A stretch of 64,000 bases of DNA from Pristiophorus japonicus. Lineage: Eukaryota. Each line of letters opens with the position of its first letter. Positions within the stretch are counted from its first letter, which is position 1. Below, in pieces: positions 8,184-62,040 of this stretch. The stretch spans positions 26,288,001 to 26,352,000 of the forward strand of contig NC_091987.1 of the NCBI RefSeq assembly GCF_044704955.1, written 5' to 3'. Under the pieces are notes generated by a model. That model was not told where the DNA came from, searched no databases, and was given only the letters and a program-made list of their open reading frames with translations. A program made the position numbers and the translations under genes.

Positions 8184-8222
8184 CGTTTTTGACGAGGCGC
8201 TACACTTGTTTGAATCACTGTG
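8184..8222 (-). other. 23-bp-spacer recombination signal sequence
   Basis: CACAGTG (8222-8216), 23-nt spacer, TCAAAAACG (8192-8184). Confidence 0.9.
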
Positions 8223-8515
8223 ATCACTTGCAGCACAGTAGTACAACGCTGTGTCAGTCGGTTTGACGCTCTCTATTTTCAGTCTGCAAGACTTAAGATC
8301 AGGCCTGATGACTTTAAACATGTCCTTGAAACTGCCTTCAAAAGTGGTGTCAGAAGTTCCAATCGAGGTGGCTATGAGCTGGAACCCTGCCCCGCGGTAC
8401 CAGTACATGTAGCTATCGCTGGTGTCGTTCTGGTAGCAGTGCATTTCTGCCGTGAGCCCCGCTCCAACCGACAGCCGGTTCGACCACTGGGAAACCAGAG
8501 CGTTCCTGCAAGGGG
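8223..8515 (-). CDS. TRBV: TCR beta-like V exon, open frame, with a 3-codon FR2 deletion
   Basis: Acceptor TTTGTAG; LVSQW..EMHCYQNDTSDSYMYWYRGAG..DTALYYCAAS; resembles horn shark TCR Vbeta as recalled from memory (needs BLAST); followed by an RSS. Confidence 0.88.
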
Positions 8516-9274
8516 CTACAAAGGAACAGGAGAAACATATCAGCTCAAATAAAAAGAGGATAGGGAGACATTTTATGTCAAATCGCGCGATGCACACCAC
8601 AATCGATCAGTTCGCCGAGCGAAGATGCAGACTCGTCATCGGTGGGTGCGAAGTGCTAACTGATCTCGACTGGAGCGGTGCTAAATCGGTGCACTGGCCT
8701 CAGGTCCCATTGCTATGGAGGCATCATGCCAGCGGGCGCCCCTCAATCCTGCAGATTCTGGCTTGTTTGACACGCTTTGCACCGTCAAACAGTCTATGAG
8801 GCCGGACTGGTTCGGCTCAATCACTTGGGTAATCTTCCAGGACATTCCGCCTCTGGTCGTCCAACCATCAGGTAATATGTAGGCGACGAGGCACATTACA
8901 TATATTTAGAAAAAAAAATTAGGCCACAATAAAATGGATCCATCGGATAATAGAGGGTTACAGCACAGAAGGAAAACATTTGTCCCATCTTGCTCTGCTG
9001 TCTCTTTGAAACAACTTTCCGATTTGGCCTACAATGACACTCTTCCCCCACAGCCCGGCAAATTTTACGCCTTTAGTTATTCATCCAATTGTCTTTTGCA
9101 AGATGCTATGGAATCTGTTTCCACCGCCCTGTCAGGCAGTATATTGCAGATCCTAACAACTCGCAAAATAAACCCTTTAAATCATCTATCTGATTGGAGC
9201 GTATGTTCAGCAACCCAAAGAAAAGTTATCAGGTTAAACAGGGCCCGAATTGCCGTACAGGTATAATCAGTTAC

Positions 9275-9320
9275 CTGGGAGAACCAGCAAAAATATATAT
9301 CGGTATACAGAATACAGCAT
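9275..9320 (-). CDS. TRBV: Leader exon of the 8223-8515 V (MLYSVYRYIFLLVLP)
   Basis: 46-nt exon, donor CAG|GTAAC, splices in frame (G+CC = Ala) across a 759-nt intron. Confidence 0.85.
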
Positions 9321-27330: not shown

Positions 27331-27368
27331 GGTTTTTGTCAGGGCCCAGGTGGGTTTGTAACGCTGTG
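27331..27368 (-). other. RSS with a 22-bp spacer
   Basis: CACAGCG (27368-27362), 22-nt spacer, consensus nonamer ACAAAAACC. Confidence 0.88.
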
Positions 27369-27677
27369 CCCCATCAGCAGCCGCGCAGTAATACACCGAC
27401 GCATCCATTTGCTTCACGCTATTCAACTTTAAACTGGACATCTTGTCGTTCAGAGTTCGGCTGATCACATATCCCGTTTTGAACCCCTCTCCATACTCAG
27501 CTTTGCCGAATTTATAGAAATATCCGATGAAGGTGAATCCTTGGCCGCGAGACTGCCGATACCAGAGCACATTGTCGCGGGCCGTTCCATTCTGATAACA
27601 GTTTAACACAGCGGATTCTCGCTCCTTTAGGGCCATCCAATGGGGCCATTGATGCACCATGTCTCCCCGGGAACCAC
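27369..27677 (-). CDS. TRBV: TCR beta-like V exon, apparently functional
   Basis: Acceptor TTTGCAG; VHQWP..AVLNCYQNGT..VLWYRQSRGQGFTFIGY..DASVYYCAAADG; no stops; both Cys, the Trp and WYRQ intact. Confidence 0.9.
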
Positions 27678-28252
27678 CTGCAAACCAACGATCCGAGAAA
27701 TATATTGATCTAACACTGAAGTGCACGCGTACTCTGAGTCAATTGCTGATATACCAGCGATTTGACGCACAAATTGTTCATATATACCGGAATTAATGCA
27801 ACGGTAACACATTTAAACTAGTTATCCCAATCCCCAAACCCTACGTGAAAAGATCCTAATACATTACTTGAAGAAGAGCTGCGGCGTCCTAGGAGAATAT
27901 TTATTCCTGAAACAATCTCACTAAAAATAGATAATCTGGTTGTATCCCGGTTATGTTTATGGGATCTTGTTTTGCGCGATTTCGCTGCCGCCTTTTCGAC
28001 ATTACAACAGTAACTACACTTCACAAACACATAACTCGGGATGTCCTGAGGTTGCGCAATTTAAAAGCAAGTCTTTCCTTCTTTGTTAAATAAAACATTC
28101 ATATAGAAGACGAATAAATAAAGTCTAATAACTGATAGTACTTTGGCACAGCTGATTAAATCGGTATGTCTTTTTGTCATTTCCACATTTATACAAAATT
28201 AAAATTAAAGGGACAAAACAGAGATGAGGTATTGGCTCAATGCCATTCTTAC

Positions 28253-28298
28253 ACAGCAGCAGAAATAAAACCGTCAGTTGGAGAACATTGAAAAGCAT
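28253..28298 (-). CDS. TRBV: Leader exon (MLFNVLQLTVLFLLL) of the 27369-27677 V
   Basis: 46 nt, donor GTAAGA, in-frame splice (T+GT = Cys). Confidence 0.87.
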
Positions 28299-28394
28299 CG
28301 TGGCGGTAAGATGCAATCCGATGGCTGCTGTTTTTGCACGCAGCGGAATGACCAAGTCTTAAATCCGCTTGAGATTATTTGTCATAACTTCAGA

Positions 28395-28527
28395 GCGGAA
28401 GTTAAATCGAAAAGCTAGAACCACTGCTACATCCCGGAAGTTGCATCAAATAGCAGCACACGCCCCTACACCCCGGAAGTTTCATCAAACTTCTGACCAT
28501 GGACCTAAGCCTCGGAAATTGCATCAA
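28395..28527 (-). promoter_or_regulatory. V promoter with four ETS sites at a 39-bp period, three joined to TT(G/T)CATCA
   Basis: GGAA starts at 28397, 28436, 28475 and 28514. Confidence 0.65.
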
Positions 28528-28653
28528 TTTCTGTAATCACCCATTTATCTTGTTATCCTCCTTTCTTCACTTGTTTACTTTTCTCTACTGTTGTTATCCA
28601 TTTCCTTTAAATCCTTGCTTTCCTGTCGTTCATCTTTCCTTCCTTCCATTTAG

Positions 28654-60181: not shown

Positions 60182-62040
60182 TCACAGTCTGATTGGCAGT
60201 CCCGCCCCCTCACATTCTGATTGCCAGTCCCGCACCCTCACAGTCTAATTGGCAGTCCAGCCCCCTAACATTCTGATTGGCAGTCCCGCCCCATCACAAT
60301 CTGATTGGCAGTCCCGCCCCCTCACAGTCTGATTGGCAGTCCCGTCCCCTCACAGTCGAATTGGCAGTCCCGCCCCATCACAATCTGATTGGTAGTCCCG
60401 CCCCCTCACAGTCTGATTGGCAGTCGCTCCCCCTCACAGTCTGATTGGCAGTTCCGCCCTCTCGCAATTTGATTGGCAGTTCCGTCCCCTCACAGTCAGA
60501 TTGGCAGTCCCGCCCCCTCACAATCTGATTGGCAGTCCCGCCCCCTCACAGTCAGATTTGCAGTCCCACCCCCTCACACTCTGATTGGCAGCCCCGCCCC
60601 ATCACAAACTGATTGGCAGTCCCGCCCCCTGACAGTCTGATTGGAAAACCCGCCCCTTACAATTTGATTGGCAGTCCCGCCCATAAAATCTGATGGGCAG
60701 TCCTGGCCGGTCACAGTCTGATTGGCAGTCCTGCCCTCTCACAGTCTGTTTCGCAGCCCCGCCCCCTCACAGTCTGATTGGTAGCCCCGCCACCTCACAA
60801 TCTGTTTGGCAGCTCCGCCCCCTCACAAACTGATTGGCAGCCTCGCCCCCTCACAGTCTGATTGGCAGTCCCGCACCCTCACGATCTGATTGGCAGTCCC
60901 GCCCCATCACAATCTGATTGGCAGTCCCGTCCCCAAACAGTCAAATTGGCAGTCCCGCCCCCTCACGATCTGATTGGCAGTCCCGCCCGCTCACAGTCTA
61001 ATTGGCAGTCCCGCCCCATCACAATCTGATTGGCAGTCCCGCCCCCTCACAGTCTGATTGGCAGTCCCGCCCCCTCACAGTCTGATTGGCAGTTCCGCCC
61101 TCTCGCAATTTGATTGGCAGTTCCCTCCCCTCACTGTCGGATTGGCAATCCAGCCCCCTCACAATCTGATTGGCAGTCCCGCCCCCTCACAGTCAGATTT
61201 GCAGTCCCGCCCCCTCACACTCTGATTGGCAGTCCCGCCCCCTCACAATCTGATTGTCAGCCCCGCCCCATCACAAACTGATTGGCAGTCCCGCCCCCTG
61301 ACAGTCTGATTGGAAAACCCGCCCTTTACAATTTGATTGGCAGTCCCGCCCATAAAATCTGGTGGGTAGTCCTGGCCGGTCACAGTCTGATTGGCAGTCC
61401 TGCCCTCACACAGTCTGATTCGCAGCCCCGCCCCCTCACAGTCTGATTGGTAGCCCCGCCCCCTTACAATCTGATTGGCAGCTCCGCGTCCTCACAAACT
61501 GATTGGCAGCCTCGCCCCTTCACAGTCTGATTGGCAGTCCCGCACCCTCACAGTCAAATTGGCAGTCCCGCCCCCTCACATTCTGATCGGCAGTCCCGCC
61601 ACATCACAATCTGATTGGCAGTCCCGCCCCCTCAAAGTCTGATTGGCAGTCGCGCCCCCTCACAGTCTGATTGTCAGTTCCGCCTTCTCGCAATTTGATT
61701 GGCAGTCCCGCCCCCTCACAATCTGATTGGCAGTCCCGCCCCCTCACAGTCAGATTTGCAGTCCCGCCCCCTCACACTCTGATTGGCAGTCCCGCCCCCT
61801 CAGAGTCTGATTGGCAGTCCCGCCCCCTGACAGTCTGTTTGGACAACCCACCTCTCACAATTTGATTGGCAGTCCCGCCCCATAAAATCTGATTGGCAGT
61901 CCTGGCCGGTCACAGTCTGATTGGCAGTCCTGCCCCCTCACAATTTGATTGGCAATCCCGTTCCATTTCAGTCTGATTGACAGTCCCGCTCCTGATATTT
62001 TGATTAACAGCCCAATCTCCTCACTGGCTGATTGACAGCC
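60182..62040. repeat. 28-bp minisatellite (TCACAGTCTGATTGGCAGTCCCGCCCCC)n, about 66 units
   Basis: Unit starts at 60182, 60210, 60238 and so on; a variant block recurs at 60641 and 61310. Confidence 0.95.

Follow-up and report, generated by a model that had tools for sequence, protein, structure and literature searches.

The window analysed here, a stretch of 64,000 nucleotides, holds on its minus strand a T cell receptor beta (TCR-beta) V gene preceded by a periodic array of putative ETS-bZIP composite sites. The V gene is followed on the same strand by eleven J segments and a C-beta exon, which identifies it as a TCR-beta V gene in the usual orientation, and the array has the position of a V promoter, upstream of a leader, a V exon and a 23-type recombination signal (spacer 22 bp) that face J-beta and C-beta. 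The position of an inverted 3' V gene (TRBV30-like) is ruled out, since the gene faces its J-C cluster. It is single-copy, with 43-51% identity to its eight nearest matches. No D segment was identified in the surveyed TCR-beta loci. A contig from run X6, which comes from another sample, has 272 bases identical to the C-beta exon and departs at the splice donor; this suggests that the cluster is transcribed and has no bearing on the V gene with the array. The features, in window positions, are as follows.

27331..27368, minus strand: recombination signal (heptamer CACAGCG, 22-bp spacer, nonamer ACAAAAACC)
27369..27677, minus strand: TCR-beta V exon, frame open, both cysteines and the tryptophan present
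27678..28252, minus strand: leader-V intron, containing part of a high-copy dispersed repeat (~27955-28052)
28253..28298, minus strand: leader exon of the V gene (ATG at 28298, hydrophobic 15-residue leader, GTAAGA donor)
28396..28409, minus strand: unit 1, nearest the gene; sense CGATTTAA-CTTCCG, ETS core intact, bZIP half decayed
28410..28434, no strand: spacer 1, 25 bp; identity 15/25 to spacer 2 and 8/25 to spacer 3
28435..28448, minus strand: unit 2, TGATGCAA-CTTCCG; C/EBP-ATF 8-mer abutting the ETS core, at -142
28449..28473, no strand: spacer 2, 25 bp; identity 13/25 to spacer 3
28474..28487, minus strand: unit 3, TGATGAAA-CTTCCG, at -181; sole change at the N of NTGATGNAAN
28488..28512, no strand: spacer 3, 25 bp
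28513..28526, minus strand: unit 4, TGATGCAA-TTTCCG, at -220; sole change at the R of GGAAR

Periodicity and uniqueness of the array

The array spans 28396-28526 on the minus strand, 103-220 bp upstream of the ATG, and consists of four 14-bp motifs and three 25-bp spacers. CGGAAR starts at 28396, 28435, 28474 and 28513, a period of 39 bp, and all four CGGAA cores are retained. The first-pass annotation had placed GGAA at 28397, 28436, 28475 and 28514 in exact 39-bp steps, and both these positions and its unit readings agree with ours. It had drawn the repeat over 28395..28552; the array itself stands, but its upper limit does not: the array ends at ~28527, and its flanks agree with the spacers in no more than 5-8 of 25 positions. 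Four equally spaced CGGAAR would be expected ~2e-7 times by chance in a 64-kb window, and the periodicity at 39 (z=8.8) was reached by 0 of 1000 shuffles. Tandem Repeats Finder, at score 30, did not list the array among its repeats.

The array is neither an assembly artefact nor a dispersed repeat. Membership of a dispersed repeat family, which the first-pass annotation had named as an outcome that would undo its proposal, was not what we found: a 381-bp stretch containing the array has one genomic match (in a search that skips very common words), and a contig pile-up sought over 28096-28640 at 80% likeness was absent, with flat depth over the array. In two runs from a single sample, which may be the source animal, a short-read contig crosses the array without any difference. 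The four sequencing runs listed as containing the stretch, none of them RNA, all come from this sample; runs X5 and X6 gave no coverage of the V exon or the promoter, a gap that carries no weight. Unlike the array, the repeat fragment in the leader-V intron is covered by short-read contigs stacked thousands deep. That fragment, together with the repeat-rich window, is what would favor a piece of dispersed repeat or an assembly artefact having landed in the promoter; the single match, the lack of a pile-up and the contigs without differences largely refute this explanation, to which we give almost no credence.

Genome-wide word counts bear on the same point. The 15-mer CGGAARTTKCATCAA has 16 matches in the 5.9-Gb genome, 3 of them inside the array, where a Markov background predicts 18-36. 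The flanks of the other 13 differ, save for a repeat-like flank common to a pair of them, and a second composite is absent beside all 13, which again argues against a dispersed repeat. The paired composite pattern has 2 overlapping matches genome-wide, both in the array (1 for the reversed control). The 13 other matches were also considered as a regulon and rejected, their number being at or below chance with no common promoter context seen.

The surroundings of the array have features of their own. CpG observed/expected is 0.85-1.1 over 27369-28530, whereas the window as a whole has 0.54 and the sequence immediately upstream 0.36; in this respect the segment resembles a small CpG island. Just upstream of the array, 29635-58008 carries a 9-kb unit in three copies that are 95-96% alike and lack V exons.

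Composite elements in paralog promoters

Our promoter survey covered 860 kb from two TCR-beta loci of one genome, and its comparisons are among paralogs, not orthologs. It started from 114 V-like ends, of which 3 were dropped as false or fragmentary, and 92 of the remaining 111 had an automatic leader call. Within 350 bp of these 92 leaders, 54 promoters have no ETS-bZIP composite, 37 have one (2 of these composites belong to a neighbor's leader and 1 is doubtful) and 1 has three. The three-composite promoter is that of the V gene with the array, the sole such cluster in the 860 kb. A quick tree of 104 rows, from which 7 with more than one stop were omitted, splits into a 41-row clade (support 92) and a 63-row clade. 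Composites occur in 33 of the 34 leader-anchored rows of the former, at -72 to -115 (2 of the 33 being those of a neighbor's leader), versus 2 of 53 in the latter. The tree leaves open the branching of the V gene with the array, and hence also the order of the bZIP changes.

The ETS core of unit 1 lies 103 bp upstream of the ATG, and the single composite of the nearest paralogs lies at -94 to -104. Because these positions match, unit 1 probably represents the ancestral site, to which units 2-4 were probably added. The flanking promoter can no longer be aligned with the paralogs; the motif and its distance from the gene persist. Comparison with the paralogs gave no significant homology in the downstream promoter, nor any between the spacers and the sequence flanking the paralog composites, where 1 of 32 comparisons reached p=0.05; tracing the ancestral unit is therefore not possible.

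Of the 92 V promoters, 15 are periodic, which makes promoter repeats a common feature of these TCR-beta loci. Twelve of the 15 carry repeats of 26-34 bp (or double that) that are rich in CCAAT-like and GC-box-like words, and these belong to the other clade, whose members end in CAWS. Examples stand on contig G000:C1166 upstream of 505589, 220899, 545469, 159922 and 456588. A similar repeat, ~65 copies of a 28-bp unit with CCAAT-like and GC-box-like words, occupies 60182-61989 of the window; its downstream side showed no V exon.

The V gene with the array had been taken for the one intact V in the window. This does not hold, as a second V at 8.2 kb (8222-9320) also has an open leader and V frame; it shows a three-codon gap after WYR relative to paralogs and has a TGATGTCA-CATCC composite at -91. 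V pseudogenes lie at ~12.0, 18.1 and 21.4 kb, and a V fragment at 62.2 kb. The next V lies to the left of the window, and its promoter (313-359) has a composite and, 41 bp further upstream, a second CGGAAG without a bZIP site. The two loci (G000:C11:26.08-26.43 Mb and G000:C1166:0.13-0.60 Mb) each contain a convergent pair of V-J-C clusters; a single J was found in one cluster of each pair and 10-11 J in the other. Identity is ~36% between the two C types and 79% between the single-J C exons of the two loci, which are either paralogous loci or divergent haplotypes. On the second contig, a V family at G000:C1166:324917, 335466, 343775, 352084 and 373657 has open exons and recombination signals, with no leader exon found between each member and the preceding V; these genes may rely on a leader further upstream, or may be inactive.

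Tandem origin and probable motif constraint

The spacers preserve a record of how the array arose. In register they are identical at 36 of 75 positions, compared with 21.6 in shuffles (p=0.0005), and their 22-nt core at 29 of 66 compared with 18.6 (p=0.005). Identity is 0.48 in register versus 0.15-0.35 at other shifts, and neighboring spacers are the most alike (15, 13 and 8 of 25). Since the spacers are alike only in register, and neighbors most so, we conclude that the array originated by tandem duplication, in line with the first-pass claim of a decayed tandem repeat. That the four sites arose independently by point mutation could be argued from spacers 1 and 3, which share only 8 of 25 positions; however, the exact 39-bp period repeated three times and the in-register excess of identity make such an origin highly improbable.

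Against this background of spacer divergence the motifs have changed little. Invariant columns number 12 of 14 in the motif versus 7 of 25 in the spacer (Fisher 7e-4), or 11 of 14 with unit 1 included (Fisher 0.003). A two-rate model puts the motif rate at 0.11 of the spacer rate (LRT 13.1, p=3e-4), on 3-4 copies only, a star tree, Jukes-Cantor distances and a consensus derived from the units themselves. Motif mismatches amount to 5 of 56, with 18.7 expected (p=2e-5, or 0.004 with the closest spacer pair). Both changes in units 2-4 fall within the 6 of 42 single changes that would be tolerated (p ~0.02), a set drawn up in this analysis from the published consensus. The three spacers contain 0 indels, compared with 2-4 expected under assumed ratios (P 0.02-0.13). 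The constraint is uneven, the bZIP half of unit 1 having decayed through three changes, and no common helical face was found, 39 bp being ~3.7 turns. The earlier claim that motifs were kept over diverged spacers is thus upheld within one genome, at p=0.015 or 0.054, depending on phase, if the window is treated as a post hoc choice.

The motif window is fixed independently by the paralogs, yet the array was noticed because its motifs survived. The duplication may have had no effect, with one site mattering and the rest seeming conserved because only a surviving array would be seen. Such neutral decay is consistent with the post hoc probabilities and with the lost bZIP half of unit 1, and the 15 periodic promoters among 92 imply that duplication needs no benefit. 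It fits poorly, however, with a motif position set by paralogs, with the rate ratio of 0.11, with the retention of all four CGGAA cores, with changes that sit at tolerated positions, and with the lack of indels in the spacers. We therefore consider neutral decay unlikely, and selection on the motifs likely, though not proven.

The interpretation we favor, and hold to be reasonably probable, is that of a V promoter in which the single ETS-bZIP composite of its clade exists in four copies, produced by old 39-bp tandem duplications, with selection keeping the motifs as the spacers drift. Judged from sequence, the array is probably functional. A metagenome scan for relatives returned one 18-residue match, which we take as chance.

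Predicted binding specificity and proposed function

The bZIP half of units 2-4 is of the C/EBP-ATF type. The consensus given in the part of PMC10637723 consulted is NTGATGNAAN, which units 2, 3 and 4 match and unit 1 does not, and the same part reports NTGACGNAAN to be bound by ATF4 heterodimers. The ATF4-C/EBP seeds in the consulted part of PMC12119339 read TGAYGCAA, covering both the C and the T form. Six paralogs carry TGACGCAA beside the ETS core, also an ATF4-C/EBP site, from which the array gene differs by one C>T transition at a CpG. Other V promoters, too, have repeatedly lost this CpG (TGATGTCA, TGATGCCA, AGATGTAA, TGACATCA). The first-pass proposal of an altered bZIP specificity is thereby weakened: the sequence contrast behind it holds relative to the two CRE-like promoters in the window, but not relative to the family, given the six paralogs with TGACGCAA. 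Its further claim, that the element keeps the register of the CRE-type composite in other V promoters, is borne out by the paralog promoters.

A stronger version would have TGAT fixed before duplication, converting a CREB/ATF-type element into three ATF4-C/EBP stress elements, so that the V gene answers different signals. All four units have GAT, which likely places the change before the duplication; units 2-4 fit NTGATGNAAN exactly, unit 3 varying only at N; and none of the other 91 of the 92 promoters was scored as having TGATGNAA. However, the paralog TGACGCAA already is an ATF4-C/EBP site, its CpG has disappeared repeatedly among V promoters, and the mammalian TRBV element, in the part of PMC2685407 consulted, is TGAxxTCA, degenerate at these very bases. 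We find a switch of specificity quite doubtful. Still bolder, and in our view improbable, is a V promoter wired to the ATF4 stress pathway through three C/EBP-ATF sites that would be immune to methylation and fixed one by one to an ETS core in a three-protein module. If such wiring were true, amino-acid or ER stress would raise V rearrangement or expression and bias the repertoire toward one V, and the ETS-C/EBP-ATF4 module would be without counterpart among the motif rows compared.

Under the favored model of a multiplied composite, the change would be mainly in dose and not in factor class, as far as sequence can tell. An ETS protein (of GABP, ETS1, FLI1 or ELF type) would sit on each of the four CGGAAR. 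On units 2-4, a bZIP dimer would occupy the 8-mer beside the core, its C/EBP-type subunit contacting TTGC, the half next to the ETS core, and its ATF-type subunit the distal half. Unit 1, in the ancestral position, would be left as an ETS-only site. The extra copies would activate additively and raise promoter output, which would in turn give more accessibility for V-DJ joining and more later transcription. V-beta promoters reportedly help rearrangement (Ryu 2004).

Published motifs provide close precedents for the units. As in the ETS-CRE and ETS-C/EBP motifs (PMC3464117 and PMC12119339, in the parts consulted), GGAAR is followed directly by an 8-bp bZIP site; the register is that of RSMGGAANTTGCGYAAN (ERF-CEBPD), NSCGGAAGTTGCGN (CEBPB-FLI1) and the ETS-CRE motif, and the TTGC half adjoins the ETS core as in the ERF-, ETV-, FLI1- and GABPA-CEBP seeds of the latter source. 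The units do not carry the ETS-CRE (GABPA-CREB1) sequence CGGAAGTGACG, reading CGGAARTT in the same register. Relative to the CAP-SELEX motif GGAAN-TTGCGYAA, units 2 and 4 have GGAAR-TTGC but a distal half of ATCA, not GYAA. The published seeds consulted are TTGCGYAA or TGACGT, whereas array units have TTGCATCA, the C/EBP-ATF4 8-mer; no seed like it occurs among the first 17 of 51 bZIP_Ets rows and all 10 Ets_bZIP rows of PMC12119339. Published ETS-C/EBP seeds thus ask for TTGCG where the array has TTGCA, and the consulted part of Table S4 of PMC12119339 has no seed with TGCATCA, a weak negative given that seeds are degenerate and either-stranded. Three-way ETS-C/EBP-ATF cooperativity is therefore a conjecture.

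The nearest analogue is the 33-bp repeat of the human TRIB3 promoter, and the array may work alike in principle. In the part of PMC7425993 consulted, this VNTR contains a C/EBP-ATF site, output rises with copy number, and the repeat is single in other mammals; both cases have a C/EBP-ATF site in a promoter repeat, single in relatives and multiplied in one lineage. The TRIB3 copies, by that account, are recent, nearly identical and polymorphic, and their effect has been measured, whereas the array has spacers about half diverged and sites that abut ETS cores. At 48% spacer identity, and unlisted by Tandem Repeats Finder, the array is not a VNTR of near-identical copies. It has instead the marks of a homotypic site cluster formed by tandem duplication, namely a constant period with homology beyond the motif, single-copy paralogs and constrained motifs. 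In flies, sites within ~50 bp share descent by local duplication followed by point mutation, according to the part of PMC3188502 consulted; that is a statistical result, and the array is a single visible vertebrate case with one specificity kept in three copies.

A subset of mammalian TRBV promoters has a TGAxxTCA CRE/decamer ~80-120 bp upstream (PMC2685407, part consulted). The shark element is similar in type and upstream distance, but it abuts an ETS core clade-wide, often ends in GCAA or GTTA and is multiplied in one gene. In this cartilaginous fish, a whole clade of V genes shares a counterpart of the CRE-type element known from mammalian TCR-beta V promoters.

No prior description of the array was found in the literature searched, most subscription and older immunology papers being outside that scope, and the consulted parts of PMC7696796 and PMC2435157 hold nothing on V promoters of its kind. 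Its ingredients are each already known and multiplied switches are a known kind; in the sources as consulted, both the ETS-C/EBP register and a C/EBP-ATF promoter repeat (TRIB3) are already described. Unless stress-inducibility is demonstrated, the array is only modestly surprising. It is nonetheless a clear natural example of binding-site duplication at a late stage of decay, for which the single-copy paralogs serve as ready-made controls, and the pair of one-copy and four-copy promoters would let the effect of promoter dose on V usage be tested. The recombination signal spacer is 22 bp in the V gene with the array and 23 in close paralogs, and a weaker 22-bp-spacer signal paired with a multiplied promoter may be a compensatory arrangement.
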